DNA from: a virus
DNA length: 21,247 bases
IMG/VR virus record: IMGVR_UViG_3300012148_000001
Reading direction: 5' to 3' (one strand)
Within the stretch, counting starts at the first letter, position 1, and the number at the start of each line of letters is the position of its first letter. Shown in pieces: positions 3,459 through 21,247 of the stretch. A model generated the notes under the pieces. That model saw only the letters and a program-made list of their open reading frames with translations. It was not told the origin of the DNA and searched no databases. The translations under genes were made by a program, and so were the position numbers.

Positions 3459-3705
3459 GACAGACGCGAGGCTCATAGGGCAGCTGCGTTGAGCAGGTGA
3501 CCGAGAGCCGAACAATTGATGGCGAGAAGTGAGTGGAAAGTGGTGTTTACACCAACTTTCGCCACGAACGCCGAGCCAAAAGACCGCAGGTCTTATAGGC
3601 GACGTTGCGAGCGGCCGTCGAACGCTAGTGAGACAGCGAGCGCACAAAACTCTGAAAGAGTTTTGCCAGGAGCCGAATGCGTGAGACATGCGTAAGCCAG
3701 GGGCT
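3456..3705 (-). repeat. Mosaic repeat block
   Basis: Its modules are shared with 10196-10340, 5774-5848 and 2466-2580. Confidence 0.85.
3515..3597 (-). repeat. 83-nt composite element (AAGACC hairpin + GGCGAAAG bulged hairpin), copy 1
   Basis: Shared sequence ...GGCGAGAAGTGAGTGGAAAGTGGTGTTTACACCAACTTTCGCC...CCGAGCCAAAAGACCGCAGGTCTTAT. Confidence 0.9.
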
Positions 3706-3830
3706 CAAAAAGCACAGCGTTTTTACATCAAACAAGGTGAAACTTGCGAACCGTAATTTAACGGATGCGGCCAATCTTAACGCTTTGCAGGCAAAGCAAA
3801 ATCCCCGCAACGGAGCACACCCGCAGTATC

Positions 3831-3886: not shown

Positions 3887-4366
3887 TTATCCTAAAGTCC
3901 CTTTAGGCATCACCATAAAGAGCAAAAACATGTGTCTCACAAAGATTACAACGAAAATACAGAAAATAATCAACGTCAAAAACTTTTGCATGTCAGCAAA
4001 AACAACGTTTTTCTTGTCTTTTTTGAGGTCCTGCATCACTTCAAACTCTTTTTTGTAAGGCTGAATGGGGAGCATTTCCTCAATAAAATCAATAACTTTC
4101 GAGTATTTAACCTTGATTAGGAATTGATAAGAGTCAATGTTGAGCCACCACATAAGCGTTACAGTCAACCCGACAAGCGTAACCGTAAGTATAGCACCGT
4201 TTGAAGAGAAAAACATAATTAAAAGATAAGTAATAGCAAGCAAACTAAGGCTTAAAACAGTGTAAAACCTGTTCGTGGCAAAGTTTCTGTCGATAAATTT
4301 TTCCTTGGCGTCGATGTAGCTTTTATACTGCTCCGTTATCATACAGGCTTTTTCTTTCTCGTCCAT
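3887..4366 (-). CDS. Membrane protein: N-terminal helix, 2 adjacent TM segments, a soluble segment and a C-terminal TM (SLATT-like architecture; family unverified)
   Basis: The internal start MDEKEK has AAAAAGGAGAAATTG upstream. TM spans are FYTVLSLSLLAITYLLIMFF, ILTVTLVGLTVTLMWWL and FLTLIIFCIFVVIFV. Confidence 0.65.
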   Translation of the reverse strand: MDEKEKACMITEQYKSYIDAKEKFIDRNFATNRFYTVLSLSLLAITYLLIMFFSSNGAILTVTLVGLTVTLMWWLNIDSYQFLIKVKYSKVIDFIEEMLPIQPYKKEFEVMQDLKKDKKNVVFADMQKFLTLIIFCIFVVIFVRHMFLLFMVMPKGTLG

Positions 4367-4436
4367 CAATTTCTCCTTTTTATTAAATAAACCGTTTATT
4401 TCCGTTTGGCGGGCTGTCTCCCGAGCCTCCGGCACG

Positions 4437-4666: not shown

Positions 4667-5239
4667 ATGTACAAATTCAGAAAGTTGAATCTCGACCCCC
4701 AAAAGCTTGACGCAGAGGCTATCGGGCACTATGTAGAGATTGTAAAATTAATAACAATATATCGTCACAATTTGTTTGACGACTTTGTAAAAACTCCCTT
4801 GAGCGAGCACGTTTTGTCGCTTGTACAAAGGACTTTCCCCTATTTTTGGGTCATACTCACGAAGGCGGACGGACGTTTTTGCGGATTCATCTATTTGTAT
4901 GATTTTGTGGGGGACGAAAAGTGCGCCCACAGCGCCTGCGTCACGGTTTGCCTGAAAAAATCCTTCTGGGGCAGGGCCGCGAGAGACATCGGCCGCGCCT
5001 TTACGGGTTTTTGTTTCGCGAAAATGGGGCTGAAAAAGCTTCGGGCGGAGTGTTTCGCCTCTAACACATTGACGGGCAAGGTTCTTTGCGATTTGAAGTT
5101 CAAAAAAGAGGGCGTTTTGAAGGGGGAAACGCTCGTAAACGGGCGGAGCGAAGACCTTGTGCTGTGGGGAATGCGTAAGCCGGTGCCAGGGTGGCAGCGC
5201 TGTGAAGCGGTGACACACAGCACTACGATGGCGACGTAG
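4667..5239 (+). CDS. GNAT family N-acetyltransferase (RimJ/RimL-like)
   Basis: The motif run WGRAARDIGRAFTGFCFAKMGLKKLRAECFASNTLTGKVLCDLKFKKEGVLKGETLVNG matches the GNAT core. The last ~22 codons read through repeat modules (GCGTAAGCC onward). Confidence 0.75.
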   Translation: MYKFRKLNLDPQKLDAEAIGHYVEIVKLITIYRHNLFDDFVKTPLSEHVLSLVQRTFPYFWVILTKADGRFCGFIYLYDFVGDEKCAHSACVTVCLKKSFWGRAARDIGRAFTGFCFAKMGLKKLRAECFASNTLTGKVLCDLKFKKEGVLKGETLVNGRSEDLVLWGMRKPVPGWQRCEAVTHSTTMAT

Positions 5240-5350: not shown

Positions 5351-5379
5351 TTGCCACACTGAAAAACCCCTTATATAAT
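5351..5379 (+). promoter_or_regulatory. Sigma70-type promoter, TTGCCA-17 nt-TATAAT
   Basis: Read directly; it lies about 80 nt upstream of the 5459 micro-ORF. Confidence 0.6.
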
Positions 5380-5533: not shown

Positions 5534-5679
5534 CGGGCATTTAATGAGAGCGGCTTCAACGCTCTCGCCCACAACAAACAAGGCGAGGTTATACCGAGCC
5601 ATAGTTTGATGGGTGCAACCAGCCTTAACGCTTTGCAAACAAAGTGAGCAATAGCGGTAAGTGCGTGTTTGCCATTTAT

Positions 5680-5707
5680 ATTATACCAAAATGCACGAAA
5701 AATACAA
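5680..5707 (-). promoter_or_regulatory. Convergent promoter, TTGTAT-16 nt-TGgTATAAT, inside a conserved 41-bp element (5671-5711)
   Basis: The reverse complement reads TTGTATttttcgtgcattttGGTATAAT. The same element recurs at 8201-8241. Confidence 0.55.
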
Positions 5708-5878
5708 GGGTGCTCCAAAATTCTGTCACCCCTGCGAGCGCCTATGAGACCTGCGGTCTTTTGGCTCACGCATAGCTCCTGTCAAAACTCTGAAAGAGTT
5801 TTGTGCGCTCCTCCGCTTCGGTCTCCTCAGCTCTGTCGCAACGTCGCCATCGTAGTGCTGCGTGTCACCGGCTGTCTT

Positions 5879-5954
5879 GGAATACGAAGTGCTCGGAAAA
5901 TTCAACATTTCCCTCGCTCAGGAGCTTTGCTTTGCATCAGCTCCCTTCGATTCC
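5879..5954 (+). repeat. 76-nt element, copy 1 (GGAATACGAAG...CTTCGATTCC)
   Basis: Near-identical to the other copies. Confidence 0.95.
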
Positions 5955-6061
5955 GCTCACAGCGCCGTCACATTCGCACCGGTTCACACCTTTACCGCCT
6001 GTCAAATCAAAGATTTGTGCATTTCTTACGGCCGCTCCACGGCCTGCAGTCATAACGGCGG

Positions 6062-6145
6062 TCATAAGACCTACAGTCTTTTGGCTCGGCGTTCGCGGCG
6101 AAAGTTGGTGTAAACACCACTTTCCACTCACTTCTCGCCATTAAT
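6062..6145 (+). repeat. 83-nt composite element, copy 2
   Basis: Same element; the loop of the first hairpin differs (ctaca versus tgc). Confidence 0.9.
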
Positions 6146-6170
6146 GAGCTCTGCAGCCACCGGCTTTCTT

Positions 6171-6246
6171 GGAATACGAAGCGCTCGGAAAATTCAACAT
6201 TTCCCTTGCTCAGGAGCTTTGCTTTGCATCAGCTCCCTTCGATTCC
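6171..6246 (+). repeat. 76-nt element, copy 2
   Basis: Near-identical to the other copies. Confidence 0.95.
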
Positions 6247-6449
6247 GCTCACCGCCGCTGTCTTTCGAGCCCCTAGCTATCGCTATTGGCTCCTGTCAAA
6301 ACTCTGAAAGAGTTTTGTGCGCTCCTCCGCTTCGGTCTCCTCAGCTCTGTCGCAACGTCGCCTATCAATACGTACGGTCTTGCGGTCTTGCCAAGCAAGC
6401 CCTGCAGACCTACTTCTGGTTCACACCTTTAGAAAGGAAAATAAACAAA

Positions 6450-7301
6450 ATGACAAACGAAAAATCTTACCCGGGCTTTTTAGCCCAAGCATGGAGCGGT
6501 AAAATCAACACAGGACTTGACGCAAGCTGCGTTATGCTCCAGTGCGTAAACCGCGATTACCAGGCGGACGCCGACAAAGGCGTCGAAGCCATAAACATCA
6601 TCGCCCCGAAAAAGGTCAAGGCGTCAAACTATGCAGGCACAATCAGCAGTTACGAGACGGTCGACACCGAAGGGCAGAAGTTAAAGCTCGACCAGAGCGT
6701 GTATTTCGGCTTTCAAGTGCCCGACATCGAGGAAGCGCAGTCAAACACAAGCATCATAGACACCCTGACCGCGCAGGCGAAAAAATCCATCGAAGAATCA
6801 ATCGACGCCTACCTTTTCGGCCACTACACAGAGGCCGCAGCCGCCAATGTCACAGGCAGCGCGGAAGACCCTGTTTTGCTTGACAGCGCAAGCGTTTACG
6901 CCAAATTTGTCGCGCTTGCCAAAAAGTTAAAACTCTCGGGCGCTATGACCTCGAGCGATAAGGGATGGGTAGTCGTTCACCCTGACGTAGAGGAGCTTTT
7001 GCTGCTTTCCGACGAATTCAGCGCGCCGTCCGCCACGGGCGACAATACCCTCTCTACAGGCTCTATAGGCAGGATTGCAGGCCTTGACGTCTTTGTCAGC
7101 AGCAATGTGGGCAAGGTTTCGGACAAATACGTAGTGCTTGCGGGTACGCAAAGGGCTATCACGTATGCGTCACAGCTTACGAAGATAGAGACAATCCGCT
7201 CGCAGTCGTCGTTTAACTCGATTGTCCGCGGCCTTTATACCTTCGGTGCGCTGACCATGAACCCCGAGGCAATGGCCGTCATGACTTGTAGAACCGCGTA
7301 A
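6450..7301 (+). CDS. Major capsid protein (HK97-fold-like, 283 aa)
   Basis: Start MTNEKSYPGF follows TTAGAAAGGAAAATAAACAAA. The protein is A/S/T/G-rich, and its C-terminal region (ITYASQLTKIETIRSQSSFNSIVRGLYTFGALTMNPEAMAVM) is typical of the Phage_capsid family. The upstream 306 nt of the track ORF is repeat mosaic. Confidence 0.7.
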   Translation: MTNEKSYPGFLAQAWSGKINTGLDASCVMLQCVNRDYQADADKGVEAINIIAPKKVKASNYAGTISSYETVDTEGQKLKLDQSVYFGFQVPDIEEAQSNTSIIDTLTAQAKKSIEESIDAYLFGHYTEAAAANVTGSAEDPVLLDSASVYAKFVALAKKLKLSGAMTSSDKGWVVVHPDVEELLLLSDEFSAPSATGDNTLSTGSIGRIAGLDVFVSSNVGKVSDKYVVLAGTQRAITYASQLTKIETIRSQSSFNSIVRGLYTFGALTMNPEAMAVMTCRTA

Positions 7302-7330
7302 GCCGGTGCTAGAGTGACGGCGCTGTGAGC

Positions 7331-7406
7331 GGAATCGAAGGGAGCTGATGCAAAGCAAAGCTCCTGAGCGAGGGAAATGTTGAATTTTCCGAGCGCTTCG
7401 TATTCC
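7331..7406 (-). repeat. 76-nt element, copy 3 (inverted)
   Basis: Its reverse complement differs from copy 2 by one base. Confidence 0.95.
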
Positions 7407-7716
7407 AAGACAGGCGGTGCCACGCAGCACTACGATAGCGACAGCTCTTCTTGTTTTCGAGGGTGAAACCCGAGAATTACAAGGGAGGGTACCCGGACGG
7501 GTGCGTAGGATGTTGAGACGGCAGTCGAAACACCCACAGGAGCTGACATCCGTTTAGGGCAGGGGTGAGCCTGAACGGCTGCGTCGTCGCAAGCGACACC
7601 CTCCCTTGTACGGCTCCTATGTCGCCTACAAGAAGAGCTGCAGCAGGCGTAAAGGGTGAACTCATTGATGGCCGCCGTTACGACCGCAGGGAGTAGGGAC
7701 CCCACGCGGCCAAGGA

Positions 7717-7890
7717 GTAGGCGACATAGGAGCCGTACTTACGATAAACAAGAAATCTGTGATTTCGTAGTTTAACGGATGCAATCTGCCGAAAGCCTTT
7801 GAGTAAAGCGAATTAGGCTTACGCGCATATTTGCCTTTGTAGCTGCTTTAGCGGCGTAGCGAAGGGGGTAATCTTTGATTTGCCAGGCGG
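7717..7890 (+). repeat. ~174-nt repeat, copy A (candidate structured RNA)
   Basis: About 95% identical to 20246-20418 by eye. Confidence 0.9.
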
Positions 7891-7942
7891 ACTGCGTAAG
7901 CCGGTGCGTCAGCGGAATCGAAGAGAAACCAAAACCTCTTGC

Positions 7943-8170: not shown

Positions 8171-8209
8171 GGTGTTAAAAGGGTTGTTAGCGCAACCCTG
8201 CCCATTTAC

Positions 8210-8237
8210 ATTATACCAAAATGCACGAAAAATACAA
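8210..8237 (-). promoter_or_regulatory. Convergent promoter, TTGTAT-16 nt-TGgTATAAT (second copy)
   Basis: It lies within the conserved element 8201-8241, and its -10 box starts about 40 nt beyond the micro-ORF stop. Confidence 0.55.
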
Positions 8238-8351
8238 GGGGCGGAGCCGTTGAGGCTTCGGACACACTACCGTCACCCATTTCCCACACTTTGTCAAGAG
8301 CTGCCCCACATTCGGGCACAAAAACAGTTTACACAATTACGGAGAAAAACT

Positions 8352-9002: not shown

Positions 9003-9420
9003 GCGATAGCTAGGGGCTCGAAAGACAGCGGCGGTCAGCCGGTGGCTGCAGAGCTCATTAATGGCGAGAAGTGAGTGGAAAGTGGTGTTTACACCAACTT
9101 TCGCCGCGAACGCCGAGCCAAAAGACTGTAGGTCTTATGACCGCCGTTACGACCGCAGGGAGTGAACAAATCTTTGATTTGCCAGGCGGTGAATGCGTGA
9201 GCCAGAAGTAGGTCTTTAGGGCTTGCGTCGTCGCAAGCGACACCCTCCCTTGTAATTCTCGGGCATAGCCCTCGAAAACAAGAAGAGCTGAAGCAAGACC
9301 GTAAGACCGTACGTATTGATAGGCGACGTAAGAGTTTGCTCGCAAACTCCACAGGAGCTGAATGCGTGAGCCAGACGTAGGACTGCAGTGCAGTATGCCC
9401 GAAGCTCACAGGAGCCAAAG
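9003..9420 (-). repeat. Mosaic repeat block
   Basis: Its modules are shared with 6062-6430, 10150-10380 and 15494-15990. Confidence 0.9.
9057..9140 (-). repeat. 83-nt composite element, copy 3
   Basis: Same element, inverted. Confidence 0.9.
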
Positions 9421-9642: not shown

Positions 9643-9885
9643 TTATGAAGTAGCGCGACCGAGCAGAGAGTGAAAGTCGAGGCGTTGAGCCTTGACTGTA
9701 ACTCGTTTATCGCGAGGGAGAAAGAACCACCCCAGTATTACGTATAAAGTTTTAACGCTGCTGTTTTGCATAAACGACAAACCCACAACCCCGCCGACTA
9801 AAACAGTCAACACGGCCATGAGGGATTGGCGCAGGGATATCAGACTGTCGACTTTCATTTTTGTGTACTCTAATTCTTTATTCAT
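9643..9885 (-). CDS. Small 2-TM membrane protein (80 aa, holin-like topology)
   Basis: Start MNKELEYTK. TM spans are LMAVLTVLVGGVVGLSF and TLYVILGWFFL. The SD is weak. Confidence 0.45.
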   Translation of the reverse strand: MNKELEYTKMKVDSLISLRQSLMAVLTVLVGGVVGLSFMQNSSVKTLYVILGWFFLPRDKRVTVKAQRLDFHSLLGRATS

Positions 9886-9945
9886 CCTGTAATTATACAC
9901 CTTGTGCATGGGCGGGGCAACAGTCATTTAAAGTAAAAAGCGAAA

Positions 9946-10026: not shown

Positions 10027-10200
10027 ATGTTTCCAGACATTTTCAAAAATCACGTTATTTTCAATAAAATGATATATGCCATATATCAAAATATAAAGGG
10101 TAAGGTTGTGTTAACAACTCTTTCCGAAGTACCAAGAGGGCTTACGCATGGCTCCTGTGGGCTTCGGGCATACTGCCCTGCAGTCCTGCGTCGCCTATAA
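10027..10200 (+). CDS. Doubtful small ORF (57 aa) whose 3' half is repeat mosaic
   Basis: GAGAGG lies 4 nt upstream of the ATG. The C-terminal 20 codons are modules seen elsewhere. Confidence 0.25.
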   Translation: MFPDIFKNHVIFNKMIYAIYQNIKGKVVLTTLSEVPRGLTHGSCGLRAYCPAVLRRL

Positions 10201-10278
10201 GACCTGCGGTCTTTTGGCTCGGCATTCGTGGCGAAAGTTGGTGTAAACACCACTTTCCACTCACTTCTCGCCATCAAT
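10196..10278 (+). repeat. 83-nt composite element, copy 4
   Basis: Same element. Confidence 0.9.
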
Positions 10279-10410
10279 TGTTCGGCTCTCGGTCAGCCGC
10301 TGACCGCCGCTGCCCTATGAGCCTCACCCCTGGCTATCGCATGGCTCCTGTGGAGTTTGCAAGCAAACTCTTACGTCGCCATCGTAGTGCTGCGTGCCGC
10401 CGGCTGTCTT

Positions 10411-10486
10411 GGAATACGAAGCACTCGGAAAATTCAACATTTCCCTCGCTCAGGAGCTTTGCTTTGCATCAGCTCCCTTCGATTCC
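10411..10486 (+). repeat. 76-nt element, copy 4
   Basis: Near-identical to the other copies. Confidence 0.95.
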
Positions 10487-10564
10487 GCTCACCGCCGCCG
10501 TCTTTCCCCCCATTCCAACGTGACATTTAGTCACCTTGTAACGGGTCCCTGCACCGGCTTACGC

Positions 10565-10595: not shown

Positions 10596-10710
10596 GCATA
10601 CTAGCCGAAGCATTAACAACATGACTATTGTAGCAAATTCCGCCAAAATTAAAAGGTGTTATTAAGAAACCTTAACAAAACTTCGTACAGACAACAATAC
10701 AGGACATTTT

Positions 10711-11151: not shown

Positions 11152-11517
11152 CTAGGCGCTGTCTCTCAGCTCTTTTTCCACCGCATCATCAATCAGGGCG
11201 TTTATGCTCTTCCCCAGCCTCGCAGCCTTTTTGGCAAGCCTGTAGTGTTTTTCGGAACTTGTACGGTAGGTTATATTGCCCTTAAAATCAGCCAAATTCA
11301 AAGGTTCGGGAATCTCAAAACCGCCCTCTAAACTCGTCAAAATGTATGCCCCGAGCGCTTCTTTGAGGTTGCTAAACGCCTCTTCCGGAGTGTCTCCGCA
11401 CGTCATGTTCTCTTCAAGTTCGTCAATGCTGCCCAAATAGCACTTGTCCGGCTCGCTCCAACTCACACGGTAGCTCCAGGGCAGCTTTAAGTAGTATTCC
11501 GTATTTTTTTCAGCCAT
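11152..11517 (-). CDS. hicB: HicB family antitoxin
   Basis: It has an RNase-H-like N-domain (YLGSIDELEENMTCGDTPEEAFSNLKEALGAYI) plus a C-terminal RHH-like segment (SSEKHYRLAKKAARLGKSINALIDDAV). The SD is GGAGGG. Confidence 0.8.
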   Translation of the reverse strand: MAEKNTEYYLKLPWSYRVSWSEPDKCYLGSIDELEENMTCGDTPEEAFSNLKEALGAYILTSLEGGFEIPEPLNLADFKGNITYRTSSEKHYRLAKKAARLGKSINALIDDAVEKELRDSA

Positions 11518-11518
11518 T

Positions 11519-11761
11519 TTAGTGTCCCTCCGCTTTTAAAGCCTTTTGTACTTTTTGAATAATGTACGGTTTGACCGGGTTTTGGGTTAATACAACCGTT
11601 ATCGAATCTCTGTTAATTTTCCTGTAAGTCAGATGTGAGCTCCCGCCTGCAGGCCCCCGGGCGCTGTAACCGAGCGTTGATAATATTTTCCGCACTTCGC
11701 TTGGTTTTATGTCAGACTTTCCGCTTAATATCTTTTGAGCTGATTTATCCGATTTACCCAT
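11519..11761 (-). CDS. hicA: HicA family toxin (mRNA interferase-like)
   Basis: The segment SEVRKILSTLGYSARGPAGGSSHLTY...ITVVLTQNPVKPYIIQKV fits the HicA fold pattern. The gene lies directly upstream of hicB. Confidence 0.65.
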   Translation of the reverse strand: MGKSDKSAQKILSGKSDIKPSEVRKILSTLGYSARGPAGGSSHLTYRKINRDSITVVLTQNPVKPYIIQKVQKALKAEGH

Positions 11762-12258: not shown

Positions 12259-12392
12259 CCGCCTGTGCAATCAGAGATTGCTTCTCTCGCTGTCTCACTA
12301 ACGTTCGACGGCCGCTCGTAACGGCGGTCATCAATGAGCTCTGCAGCCACCGGCTAACCGCCGCTGTCTTTCGAGCCCCTAGCTATCGCTAT
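12259..12392 (+). repeat. Mosaic repeat block upstream of the portal gene
   Basis: Inverted partner of 2466-2612. It contains an empty site for the 76-nt element. Confidence 0.85.
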
Positions 12393-12407
12393 TAGAAAGG
12401 AAGATAA

Positions 12408-14027: not shown

Positions 14028-14130
14028 AAACAAGCCTCTGCCGGCTTTTGACTTTCTTTAAAGCTTGTAAAAAATGTAAAAAAGAGGAAAGCGGCTGTAT
14101 GGTGCAAAACTTAAACTAAAACCACAAACT

Positions 14131-15447
14131 ATGAACTATAAATTACTTAAATCTCAAAAAAAATTCCTGGAAATTCCACATAATTACAGCCTCGATGTTT
14201 GCATTTATCAGGGCGGTTTTGGTTCGGGAAAAACCTTTGCGGGGTCGCTTCTCGGGGTTTTGCTGTGCCTTAAATACCCCAAAATTATCGGCCTTGTGGG
14301 CGCACAGACCTATGCGCTCGTCCGAGACACAACTCTGACAAGCTATTTCGAGCATCTTTCGAACATGGGCTTCAAAGAGGGCAGGGAGTTTTCTTTCAAC
14401 AAATCCGAAAAAATACTCGAGCTAAAAAACGGCTCCAGAGTTCTGTTTCGGCACTTTGACGAGCCCAACAAACTCAAAAGTCTGAATCTGGGCTTCGCTG
14501 AAATCGAAGAAATGTCCGATGTTCCCGAAGAGACCTTCAAAATGCTTCTGGGGCGCATGAGACAGACTGTTCAGGCCGACTGGAAAGACTTTACGTACAG
14601 AATATTCGGGCATACAAACCCCGAAAACCGCAGGGGGTGGATATATAACACTTTTGTAAAAATCAAAAGGCCTAATTACAGGCTTATTATAGCGCCTTCA
14701 ACCGAGAACATCCACTTGCCGAAAGACTTTTGCAAGGATTTGAAGCGGGCATACGACGAAAAGTATTATAAAATGAACGTTTTGGGCGAATTTGAAGAAG
14801 GTGATAACGCGCTTGTAGTAAGGGATTTTACGGAAGAGAACATCCGTAAACTCAATTATAACGAGGGTCTTGATTTGCACATTACCTGTGATTTCAACGT
14901 AGACCCTATGTGCTGGCTTATCGCGCATAAAGACGACAGCAAAGTGTACTTTATAGACGAATTTGCGCTTGAAAACGCAACCACATCAAGTGCTTGCGAC
15001 GAGTTCATCCGCCGATACCCTTGCCACAAGGGACGAATCGTCATTAACGGAGACGCGAGCGGCGACAACAGGAGCTGCCAGAGCGAGTATACGAACTATG
15101 TCATCATGCGAAACAGGCTTGGCGCGCACGGTTACAGGGATGTAAAGTTCGACATCCGCACTTTCAATCCGCCGATACGCAACAGAATCGCGGCTTTTAA
15201 CGCCATGGTCAAAAACTCGGAAGGCGAAAGGCGGCTGTTCGTTGACCCGCAGTGCGAAAAACTTTTGTACAACTTTGAGAACTTGAAATATCTGGAAGGC
15301 AGCTCCAGACTTGACTTGCCGAGCTATTACCAAATCAAAAGCCTGCCCGGCACGAAATTTCTCGGCCACCCTTTTGACGCCGCAAGTTACCTTGTAGAGT
15401 ACTATTTCCCGATTGTCTGCGCGGGCAGCGGGTTTGAGGGGGTTTAG
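14131..15447 (+). CDS. terL: Terminase large subunit
   Basis: It carries Walker A (GGFGSGKTF), Walker B-like (LGFAEIEE) and nuclease acidic motifs (ITCDFNVDP, INGDASGDN, HPFDAASY). Confidence 0.9.
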   Translation: MNYKLLKSQKKFLEIPHNYSLDVCIYQGGFGSGKTFAGSLLGVLLCLKYPKIIGLVGAQTYALVRDTTLTSYFEHLSNMGFKEGREFSFNKSEKILELKNGSRVLFRHFDEPNKLKSLNLGFAEIEEMSDVPEETFKMLLGRMRQTVQADWKDFTYRIFGHTNPENRRGWIYNTFVKIKRPNYRLIIAPSTENIHLPKDFCKDLKRAYDEKYYKMNVLGEFEEGDNALVVRDFTEENIRKLNYNEGLDLHITCDFNVDPMCWLIAHKDDSKVYFIDEFALENATTSSACDEFIRRYPCHKGRIVINGDASGDNRSCQSEYTNYVIMRNRLGAHGYRDVKFDIRTFNPPIRNRIAAFNAMVKNSEGERRLFVDPQCEKLLYNFENLKYLEGSSRLDLPSYYQIKSLPGTKFLGHPFDAASYLVEYYFPIVCAGSGFEGV

Positions 15448-15449
15448 GC

Positions 15450-15990
15450 ATCCTGTTTGTCAAATCAAAGATTACCCCATTTGCAGCGAGCAACAGCTCG
15501 TCTTGTTTTCGAGGGCTATGCCCGAGAATTACAAGGGAGGGTGCCGTTTTCGGCCAAATTAAAATGGCGTAGCCATTATTCCCCGCGGGGGGCTTGTCGT
15601 ATGGCTTTGCGTCTGGCTTACGCTTTCGGCTCCTGTGGGTGTCTCAACTACCGTCTCAACATCCTACGTCGCCATCGTAGTGCTGCGTGCCGCCGACTGT
15701 CTTGGAATACGAAGCGCTCGGAAAATTCAACATTTCCCTTGCTCAGGAGCTTTGCTTTGCATCAACTCCCTTCGATTCCGCTCGCCGCCGCCGTCTTCCC
15801 CCCCCATTCCAACGTGACATTTAGTCACCTTGTAACGGGTCCCTGCACCGGCTTACGCATCCCGCCTGTCAAATCAAAGATTTGTTCACTCCCTACGGCC
15901 GCTCCACGGCCTGCGGTCGTAACGGCGGCTATCAATACGTACGGTCTTACGTGCTTGCTCATCGCAAGCCCTAAAGACCTACTTCTGGCC
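15450..15990 (+). repeat. Mosaic repeat block between terL and the 16012 gene
   Basis: Its modules are shared with 10343-10565, 5995-6060 and 9169-9330. Confidence 0.9.
15704..15779 (+). repeat. 76-nt element, copy 5
   Basis: Near-identical to the other copies (3 substitutions). Confidence 0.95.
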
Positions 15991-16011
15991 CAAGCACTTA
16001 GAAAGGAAAAT

Positions 16012-16254
16012 ATGGAAAATTTGAATCTTGTAATCGAGTATGCACCAACGGTTTTGGTGATTTTAATGTTTTTGCTGCACAACAAGTTTTTTGTGACGCC
16101 GGAGCAGTTGGAGCGCAGGCACAGGGACATTATAAAGGAGGTGGAAAACCGCTTTGCGCCTTTGATTTCGATGGATGAGCTGAAGCAGCAGTTTAGCGAA
16201 GTTAAAGAGAAAATAGACAAAATTTACGAATATTTTATGCGTGACAGGTACTGA
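16012..16254 (+). CDS. Membrane-anchored coiled-coil protein (80 aa)
   Basis: Start MENLNLV follows TTAGAAAGGAAAAT. It has an N-terminal TM segment (PTVLVILMFLL). The upstream 555 nt of the track ORF is repeat mosaic. Confidence 0.55.
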   Translation: MENLNLVIEYAPTVLVILMFLLHNKFFVTPEQLERRHRDIIKEVENRFAPLISMDELKQQFSEVKEKIDKIYEYFMRDRY

Positions 16255-17276: not shown

Positions 17277-17452
17277 GGGGGTGAGAGAGTTTCAAATATG
17301 TGTCTGCGCGGCAATTGTGGAAATTGCTGTTGTACGCAGTAAAATGTTCAGTTGACGCCAAGACGGGAGCCGTTTTGAGCAGACACGCCGGAGAAGCGGG
17401 AAAGGGACTGATGCAGGGTCGCCAGGCGAAGTACAGCCGCAGCAACGGGCGG

Positions 17453-17501
17453 AAGCTCCCGAGCGAAGGAAATGTTGAATTTTCCGAGCGCTTCGTATTC
17501 C
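17453..17501 (-). repeat. 76-nt element, truncated copy (about 49 nt)
   Basis: It matches the GGAAATGTTGAATTTTCCGAGCGCTTCGTATTCC half. Confidence 0.85.
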
Positions 17502-17522
17502 AAGACGCGCGGATACACGGCA

Positions 17523-19938: not shown

Positions 19939-20166
19939 ATGAAACTTACAACCAGGGAAAATCAAGTCATATCACTGCTTGTAACAGGTTTGGACGACAA
20001 AAGCATCGCATCCCAGATGGGGGTTTCGGTCAGAACCGTACACGCGCATCTGGCAAACATTTACACAAAGTTTAAAGTTCAAAACCGCTCGAGCGCTATA
20101 CTTTTTTGGCTAAACAAAGAAGGACAGAGCTGCGGAAAGCTGCTTCAAGGCACACGCTGCCTGTAG
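19939..20166 (+). CDS. LuxR/GerE-type HTH protein (75 aa, DNA-binding domain only)
   Basis: The segment LTTRENQVISLLVTGLDDKSIASQMGVSVRTVHAHLANIYTKFKV is a canonical GerE HTH. The SD is AAGGAAGGGAA. The stop TAG lies in the repeat CCTGTAGGCG. Confidence 0.8.
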   Translation: MKLTTRENQVISLLVTGLDDKSIASQMGVSVRTVHAHLANIYTKFKVQNRSSAILFWLNKEGQSCGKLLQGTRCL

Positions 20167-20178
20167 GCGAGTTTGCGA

Positions 20179-20240
20179 GCCGTACAGAGCTGGGTCCTAG
20201 CGGATACTAAGGCGGGAGCCGCAGTACCAAGAGGGCACGC
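20179..20240 (+). repeat. 62-nt direct repeat, copy 1 (GCCGTACARAGCTGGGTCCTAGCGGATACTAAGGCG..AGCCGCAGTACCAAGAGGGCACG)
   Basis: Matches 20480-20541 with 3 differences. Confidence 0.9.
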
Positions 20241-20245
20241 TGCCT

Positions 20246-20418
20246 GTAGGCGACACAGGAGCCGTACTTACGATAAACAAGAAATCTGTGATTTCGTAGT
20301 TTAACGGATGCAATCTGCCGAAAGCCTTTGAGCAAAGTAAATCAGGCTTACGCGCATATTTGCCTTTGCAGCTGCTTTAGCAGCGTAGCGAAGGGGGTAA
20401 TCTTTGATTGCACAGGCG
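20246..20418 (+). repeat. ~174-nt repeat, copy B
   Basis: About 95% identical to 7717-7890. Confidence 0.9.
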
Positions 20419-20479
20419 CAAAAGACGTCAAGCCAGAAGTACCAAGAGGGCACGCCGCCTGTAGGCAAGGTGAAACCGC

Positions 20480-20541
20480 GCCGTACAAAGCTGGGTCCTA
20501 GCGGATACTAAGGCGTCAGCCGCAGTACCAAGAGGGCACGA
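20480..20541 (+). repeat. 62-nt direct repeat, copy 2
   Basis: Matches 20179-20240. Confidence 0.9.
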
Positions 20542-20601
20542 CGCGCATAAAACGCAGGTCGGGACGCTGTAAACGCGGGCACACTCAACCGTTGGGGAGT
20601 A

Positions 20602-21119: not shown

Positions 21120-21247
21120 ATGAAAGATTTTTTCTACAACCTGCAAGGCGGCATAAACACAAGCCGCACAAAGATTGCTCTCGGTTCAGACGTTAAAAAG
21201 CTGTACTGGGACGATGCTTCCAATGTCGAAATATTGAAAAACCAAGG
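21120..21247 (+). CDS. 5' end of the junction-spanning tail-like structural gene (continues as 2..1516; 506 aa in total)
   Basis: ATG at 21120 is preceded by AAGGAAACA. The frame maps onto base 2 of the window and onto the 110..1516 track ORF. Confidence 0.75.
   Translation, partial: MKDFFYNLQGGINTSRTKIALGSDVKKLYWDDASNVEILKNQ
21125..21247. repeat. Terminal overlap copy 2 (= 1-123)
   Basis: Identical to the window start. The reading frame of the junction gene is continuous across it. Confidence 0.95.

Follow-up and report, generated by a model that had tools for sequence, protein, structure and literature searches.

Phage genomes are normally packed with genes, and a 76-nt repeat found at positions 6171-6246 of a small viral genome, and again in several near-identical copies, raises the question of what this repeat is and how it spread. 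The window, i.e. the whole stretch of 21,247 nucleotides that was analysed, consists of a 21,124-bp genome and a 123-nt direct terminal repeat. As this terminal repeat is exact (1-123 = 21125-21247), the window is considered to be a complete phage genome. It is the genome of a podophage, coding for an SU10-type portal, a Terminase_3 large subunit (TerL), a Phage_capsid_4 capsid, a small terminase, an amidase and an HTH_36/DnaD-like replication protein. Among the phage genes of the window, no integrase, transposase, recombinase or polymerase was found. The called genes cover ~59% of the phage genome and ~40% is non-coding, half of which would consist of tiny structured modules, probably mobile, that are common to phage and host. 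Two identities had been proposed for the repeat in an earlier note, either a MITE-like unit with a divergence low enough for recent spread or gene conversion, or a compact structured RNA. The results presented here suggest that the 76-nt repeat probably forms the core of a longer unit of 84 nt, a non-autonomous mobile DNA that targets the loops of folded hairpins and leaves no footprint.

The repeated unit and its fold

Five full copies of the repeat are located at 5879-5954, 6171-6246, 10411-10486 and 15704-15779 on the plus strand and at 7331-7406 on the minus strand, with 97.4-100% identity to the 6171 copy. A sixth copy lies at 17453-17501 (minus strand), and all six positions had been given correctly in the earlier note. 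The terminal sequences GGAATaCGAAG and CTTCGATTCC are present in all full copies and form a stem (GGAAUaCGAAG/CUUCGAUUCC as RNA) that encloses two hairpins, as had been described. RNAfold agrees with the three-way junction that had been predicted for the 76-nt copies (-19 to -24 kcal/mol, z -2.2 to -3.9). The sixth copy, previously regarded as truncated, is a long variant of the unit whose second hairpin contains an extra ~33 nt; its covariance-model match extends from 17399 to 17515 (minus strand, flanks included). In strain s147, the long variant is complete at 109 nt with its closing stem present, and the closing strand has decayed in the window.

Comparison of the copies indicated that sequence conservation reaches beyond the 76-nt core into the flanks. 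The unit delimited by the comparison of empty and filled sites between strains measures 84 nt and reads TGTCTT, the 76-nt core and GC. The mobile unit is longer than the core and overhangs the terminal inverted repeats asymmetrically, by 6 nt (TGTCTT) on one side and 2 nt (GC) on the other. Copy 1 of the 84-nt unit (5873-5956, plus) is located upstream of the capsid gene. Copy 2 (6165-6248, plus), which contains the repeat at 6171-6246, has the 5' tag TTTCTT and lies inside an S-type hairpin module. Copy 3 (7329-7412, minus) has the opposite orientation and follows closely on the stop codon of the capsid gene. Copy 4 (10405-10488, plus) has an orthologous site in s147 (L147, about 4062) that is precisely empty. 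Copy 5 (15698-15781, plus) belongs to a 469-nt mosaic block that is missing entirely from strains L148, L151 and L152.

The strand called sense in the earlier note is not the one that folds better. Its reverse complement has the more stable fold (-30.1 kcal/mol, z -4.1; RNAfold), and this holds in every homologue, with G.U pairs where the other strand has A.C, as in the invariant GGGAAAU/AUUUUCC. On this strand the 84-nt unit reads 5'-GC-GGAAUCGAAG...CUUCGuAUUCC-AAGACA-3'. Its ends pair with each other into a 10-bp stem with one bulged base, around two hairpins that are unlike in sequence and size, the first of which has GUUGA as its own loop. The former sense orientation does lack stop codons in every frame, but so do 8% of dinucleotide shuffles, and stop counts in the mosaic blocks are near expectation; stop-free frames as a selected feature were rejected on this ground. 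The recurring 'LGIRSARKIQHFP' peptides among the open reading frames are indeed read-through of the repeat.

A covariance model was built from copies of the phage and of the metagenome-assembled MAG and RUG genomes described below. The search with it, proposed as a check in the earlier note, recovered diverged members that do not contain the search string in phage strains (type B in s147 and s148) and in the host (types C and D). The terminal stem P1 is paired at 98% across 29 distinct sequences with both-sided changes at 8 of its 10 pairs, in an alignment that was fitted to the model and that contains many near-identical rows; its bulged base is retained in most types. The covariation of P1 is ambiguous because it is also expected from transposon ends that are inverted repeats. 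Members of type A and of the MAG and RUG types all have the same apical hairpin, GGGAAAU-GUUGA-AUUUUCC; this invariance is partly due to ascertainment since the hairpin was the search pattern. In types B-D the hairpin shows double substitutions, and slid controls scored far lower. The junction strands differ completely among the phage, MAG and C/D types, and the stems are kept. In the diverged relatives of the likely host and of the MAGs, compensatory changes preserve the stems.

Empty sites, hairpin targets and the host

The orthologous empty site is located 5' of the small terminase gene in s147 and reads ..GTGCCGCCGGC|TCACCGCCGCC.., where the bar marks the insertion point. At this site the window contains exactly 84 extra nt (TGTCTT, core and GC), and the flanks match over more than 100 nt on each side. 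The junction is ambiguous by only 2 nt, with GC on either side of the unit, and a target-site duplication is therefore absent; nor is any duplication shared by the flanks of the different copies. The 84-nt unit was thus inserted or excised precisely. Unoccupied paralogues of the site of the 6171 copy are found at about 9003-9063 and 12329-12398, and also in s147. The first (9003-9063, plus) is an S-type target hairpin module reading ..CAGCGGC-GGUCA^GCCGGUGGCUG.., with ^ at the insertion position, and the second (12329-12398, minus) is a module of the same type with the loop GGUUA. As only one empty/filled pair is orthologous, some of the paralogous empty sites could be secondary losses.

When folded, all five empty sites placed the insertion point directly after the final base of a pentaloop, where the 3' strand of the stem begins, on the reverse complement of the former sense strand. 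The target pentaloops are GGUGA, GGUCA, GGUUA and GUUGA, carried by a short hairpin whose shape is typically ((.((.((((.....)))).)).)). Insertion always occurred 3' of the A of a G(G/U)UNA loop (5/5 empty sites), and the 5' flank of filled sites ends in ..NNA. After removal of the unit in silico, 10 of the 14 distinct filled sites had the junction at the same loop/3'-stem position in the minimum-energy fold. Hairpins of the target type that are unoccupied number seven in the window for 1.9 expected. The unit was found at this structural position in hairpins as unlike as CACCGGC^TCACC, CACCGCC^TGAAC, CACCTGC^TCAAC and, in the host, GGCCCCC^TCAAC. The target was shown in this way to be structural, namely the pentaloop/3'-strand junction of a short hairpin.

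The family extends to cellular genomes. When one genome per species was scanned for the apical hairpin, a few uncultured MAGs (CASELB01, CASDWH01, RUG14214, RUG745) matched in multiple copies. The MAG unit, GGAUUaUUCGG...CCGAAAAUCC, is diverged with the same architecture, keeps the 3' tail CCAAGACAG and lies in the loop of an outer hairpin, at the 3' edge. One MAG copy (L105, 26-159) has the loop of its apical hairpin reversed with respect to the flanks, together with an expanded other arm, a pattern suggestive of a small inversion across the stem of this hairpin. The phage-type unit itself was detected in the metagenome scan in JGI Ga01539xx samples only, with one match on a cellular contig. 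No near-identical DNA was found in GenBank phages, and the IMG/VR scans gave no phage-type element, two 18-mer matches being unrelated coding DNA.

Host chromosomal contigs were reached through a pilin-like protein in the same samples as the phage, one of them, of 1.14 Mb, in the window's own sample. The GAPDH of the host has 86% identity to its counterpart in Candidatus Gastranaerophilus (ex Termes propinquus), and to judge from this the host is likely a Gastranaerophilus-like member of the Melainabacteria. The phage portal (12408-14027) shares ~22% identity with portals of cyanobacterial podoviruses (LPP-2, Pf-WMP3, A-4L), a distant similarity that fits a host in the sister group of Cyanobacteria. 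One MAG has three neighbouring genes in common with the host, with 46-62% protein identity. Several phage modules are present in host spacers at 80-100% identity. In ~83 kb of non-redundant host DNA, 0.7% is similar to phage modules and four family members were identified, one of them of type A, the phage type. The density in the phage, with six copies and 20% of repeats in 21 kb, is much above that of the host. The element thereby links an uncultivated phage to an uncultivated Gastranaerophilus-like host, and to our knowledge no phage has been isolated from these Melainabacteria.

Three host pilin paralogues (L165 10676-11035; L171 845-1144; L171 5214-5513, minus) have in-frame, stop-free insertions of 252, 90 and ~260 nt in the region of the prepilin leader. 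At L171:845, the insertion is a 90-nt diverged element of type D (..GGCCCCC|TCAACGGAGCCC..). The type D element of L165:10676 is itself occupied and reads ..GGCCCCC|TGTCTT[76 nt]GC|TCAACGGAGACC.. The intact junction ..GGCCCCC|TCAACGG.. thus becomes ..GGCCCCC|TGTCTT[76]GC|TCAACGG.., and an 84-nt unit is therefore nested in the GUUGA loop of a relative. Its structural position matches that in the phage; the junction is ambiguous by 1 nt and has no target-site duplication. An apparent empty/filled polymorphism of the host at the pilin gene was rejected; it is only a difference in gene calling, all strains carrying the insertion. An 11-nt direct repeat at the pilin insertion could be a target-site duplication of the family, but it overlaps the terminal stem of the type D element and may be carried by the element itself. 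Beside the pilin locus, the 1.14-Mb contig contains an unrelated prophage-like region (L173 1-9600) with an integrase, an SSB, a YqaJ and a CI-like repressor, in which the covariance-model search found no family member.

Mosaic blocks and strain variation

The 76-nt repeat is one among several interspersed modules of the phage genome. By self-comparison, these modules amount to 4.3 kb, i.e. 20% of the genome, and they are confined to spacers, where they occur in both orientations and in mosaic combinations. The closest IMG/VR relative (L001) is a complete phage of 13,992 bp with a 127-nt terminal repeat, a TerL 70% identical, the same gene order and short spacers. No family member was found in L001 and in related 14-40-kb phages identified through TerL. 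An 8xMP-family octameric membrane protein (3887-4435, minus) and a GNAT acetyltransferase (4667-5239, plus) are encoded between the structural genes, and both are conserved in L001.

The mosaic block at 2465-2827 includes an exact tandem duplication (2669-2747/2749-2827) of a 79-nt module, directly 5' of a gene for a 211-aa protein. The one at 3468-3706 contains an unoccupied target-type hairpin, CTGC-GTTGA-GCAG, at 3484-3496. Copies 1 and 2 of the 84-nt unit lie in the block between the GNAT and capsid genes (5731-6443), copy 3 in the block between the capsid and scaffold-like genes (7296-7907) and copy 4 in the block 5' of the small terminase gene (10149-10564). Further blocks are found at 9003-9419, at 15489-16012 between the TerL and 80-aa genes, and at 20153-20544 between the GerE-like and amidase genes. 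The module content of the latter is unlike in each of three strains, and an 84-nt unit is present in this region in s148 and L151. A 39-nt AT-rich motif, CCATTTAyATTATACCAAAATGCACGAAAAATACAAGGG, is conserved 5' of the capsid, scaffold-like and small-terminase genes (5672-5710, 8202-8240, 10619-10657). It is distinct from the GC-richer mosaic modules and may be a late promoter or regulatory site of the phage.

Strain variants of the phage were recovered from other samples by exact-protein look-ups (ERZ27241822, -823 and -828; JGI 3300012082, 3300012088 and others; Logan SRR6448491 and SRR6448500). Their genes are 97-99% identical, and their spacers are unlike in content, order and orientation. 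Three strains have a spacer of 97 nt between TerL and the next gene, compared with 565 nt in the window and 685 nt in s147. Independent assemblies gave the same copies with the same flanks, and the repeats are therefore not an assembly artefact. Such elements can dominate the strain-level variation of a virus.

The differences between strains go beyond single units. The segment 9378-10092 is inverted in s148 and bracketed by inverted repeat modules (9374-9417/10149-10192 and 9057-9138/10197-10278), the block at 9003-9419 being its left inverted-repeat arm; it carries the gene of a 94-aa membrane protein (9643-9927, minus). In s147, a mosaic block of ~300 nt (L147 7640-8000; window ~14115-14175) follows codon 15 of the large terminase gene, and 60 nt comprising the ribosome-binding site and the first 15 codons are duplicated. 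As a result of this duplicated gene start, TerL remains intact downstream of the block. Larger mosaic blocks have flanking duplications of 11, 18-20, 45 or 60 nt, and a second mechanism, duplication or recombination, therefore also shapes the blocks. Strain s148 lacks a HicB-like gene and its 80-aa partner (window 11152-11761, minus), which may form a toxin-antitoxin pair and are found in the window, in s147 and in L150.

Family members would insert into one another's hairpins, and local duplication together with recombination between copies would give rise to mosaic intergenic blocks. The blocks were plausibly built by such mutual loop insertion and by duplication or recombination, and would explain the greater part of the ~7 kb by which this phage exceeds its compact 14-kb relatives. 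An alternative explanation is that the elements are not mobile at all. A composite of S hairpin and 84-nt unit would then spread by duplication, homologous recombination and gene conversion, and the 'empty' sites would result from replication slippage across the P1 base, between repeats of 1-2 nt. The GC on both sides of the unit at the filled phage site could support slippage, the larger blocks do spread with long flanking duplications and with recombination and inversion between copies, and the 97-100% identity of the copies is also expected from gene conversion. However, the occurrence of the unit at the same structural position in unlike hairpins, including that of a diverged host member, is hard to obtain by copying one composite module, and the nested junction of the host is ambiguous by only 1 nt. 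This explanation was judged improbable. The low divergence pointed out in the earlier note fits recent spread, and gene conversion, its other proposal, fails on its own for the same structural position in unlike hairpins.

Structured RNA, transposition and known systems

The unit could also be chiefly a functional structured RNA of phage and host, kept in many copies by selection, for instance as a small RNA that binds protein or as a cis-acting signal for mRNA stabilisation or processing. The stems conserved with compensatory changes agree with this part of the earlier proposal, as do the apical hairpin shared by type A, MAG and RUG members and the G.U asymmetry that marks one strand. The copies are also found in late-gene leaders and spacers that are probably transcribed, with sigma-70-like sites 5' of blocks at 5351 and 7944; within the modules, nothing notable was found in the way of sigma-70 promoters or intrinsic terminators. 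The copies nevertheless lie in both orientations between co-directional genes. Their junctions are not conserved, types B, C and D alter the apical hairpin, and its invariance elsewhere is partly the product of the search. The presence of the element is polymorphic among near-identical strains, and the compact relatives do without it. Rfam 15 gave nothing in the window at gathering score or at E <= 1 and only chance-level matches in the MAG loci, and ARAGORN found 0 tRNA or tmRNA genes. The RNA proposal is thus the weaker half of the earlier alternative, and only a slender probability is given to it. A hammerhead-like self-cleaving ribozyme was rejected, the junction strands being unconserved and without Rfam ribozyme match.

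A classical MITE, i.e. the deletion derivative of a DDE-transposase IS with a fixed target-site duplication, appears very improbable despite the 10-11-bp terminal inverted repeats of a small, non-coding, multi-copy element common to phage and host as are vMITEs (PMC11602168), given the 1-2 nt of ambiguity without target-site duplication at the orthologous pair and the nested insertion, the asymmetric overhangs, the hairpin-loop target and the lack of a longer element with the same ends in the host and MAG DNA examined. The MITE-like reading of the earlier note is nonetheless retained as far as it concerns a non-coding, multi-copy unit with pairing termini, whose presence varies between strains and which inserts into its own relatives. 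MITEs that occur both in phages and in their hosts, at a higher density in the viral than in the cellular genomes, are known (vMITEs, Nadal-Molero et al. 2024, PMC11602168). The unit resembles them (PMC11602168) as a short non-coding sequence with pairing ends, found in a phage and a likely host chromosome at at least 95% identity, denser in the virus and providing a phage-host link. Contrary to vMITEs, which are defined by terminal inverted repeats and target-site duplication (PMC11602168), it is inserted in hairpin loops without duplication. The load is also extreme here, the element and its companion modules making up ~20% of a 21-kb genome.

For the 84-nt mobile element proposed here, movement would be catalysed in trans, most probably by a putative host enzyme, since no recombinase or transposase was found in the phage. 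Three features suggest a single-strand route, namely seamless insertion beside a short motif, reliance on folded hairpins with extrahelical bases, and G.T wobbles confined to one strand. This route may be of the HUH/Y1 type (IS200/IS605 or RAYT-like), a tentative assignment that we regard as more doubtful than probable. No Y1 transposase (TnpA, RAYT) was found in the phage genes or in the gene tables of the host loci examined. An autonomous parent with the same ends was not found either, no pair of ends 0.2-4 kb apart enclosing a gene in the host and MAG DNA searched (~0.1 Mb of non-redundant host DNA).

Several known systems share some of these properties. Mosaics of REP, BIME and REPIN sequences, and REPs inside genes, are known, Cyanobacteria included (PMC3733652). 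The modules described here likewise form palindromic mosaic clusters in spacers, in both orientations and sometimes inside genes, and for REP/REPIN sequences mobilisation in trans is attributed to a single host enzyme (RAYT, Y1/HUH) that works on folded single strands. The S-type target hairpins are short palindromes; the 84-nt unit is not a simple palindrome, and its three-way junction differs from the 20-40-bp hairpin or hairpin doublet of REPs. In addition, GTAG/CGTC are not adjacent to the stems, the genome is that of a lytic-type phage, and no counterpart of the RAYT gene of REP systems was seen in the phage genes or host loci examined. IS200/IS605 elements and their miniature derivatives (PATEs) transpose by 'peel-and-paste' of a single strand, seamlessly and without target-site duplication, and insert directly 3' of a motif (TTAC for IS608, TTGAT for ISDra2). 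The absence of duplication, the insertion adjacent to a motif, here G(G/U)UNA, and the imperfect hairpins with extrahelical bases are similar. However, IS200/IS605 elements have a similar subterminal hairpin at each end and ends that are not paired with each other, whereas the ends of the 84-nt unit pair and its inner hairpins are dissimilar; the target motif is here displayed in a hairpin loop, and no TnpA was found among the genes examined.

A target recognised as a folded hairpin is known for IS1397 and ISKpn1 (in REP loops), group IIC introns and integron attC sites. The unit resembles these systems in that a folded hairpin, rather than a duplex sequence, would be recognised. Their mobile DNA measures at least 1 kb and depends on known enzymes (DDE transposase, intron RT and IntI, respectively), in contrast with an 84-nt non-coding unit, and IS1397 makes a duplication of 3-4 bp. 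The difference from the described systems is the combination of an 84-nt three-way junction, a base-precise loop target without duplication, self-nesting and an extreme load on a tiny phage. The unit could then represent an undescribed, 'hairpin-homing' class of miniature elements that recognises a pentaloop hairpin, inserts seamlessly and carries its own target. Because of this target copy, it can accumulate autocatalytically into nested mosaics, which would have enlarged the genome by about half and would drive a very rapid reshuffling of the spacers, in which a gene cassette was inverted and gene starts were duplicated. A new kind of transposase or recombinase, structure-specific and acting on single strands, could then be at work, from Melainabacteria or from their phages. 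Such a class was considered rather unlikely. As the way in which REP-like and other non-classical miniature elements move is poorly understood, the base-precise picture of the movement of a module (an 84-nt unit, no footprint, a hairpin-loop target) provides a useful foothold, and the 84-nt unit with a 13-nt target hairpin is a simple substrate for finding the enzyme.

Rickettsia palindromic elements (RPEs), palindromes of ~100 nt, are inserted in frame and stop-free inside protein-coding genes. The family insertions in the cleaved leader of the three host pilin paralogues are reminiscent of them. Unlike RPEs, to which they have no sequence relationship, the elements described here are found in another host lineage, are mostly intergenic and have an absence of stop codons that is statistically ordinary. 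In the pilin paralogues, a duplicated AFTLAE or GFTLAE cleavage motif is retained downstream of the insertion, so that the insert would leave with the cleaved leader.
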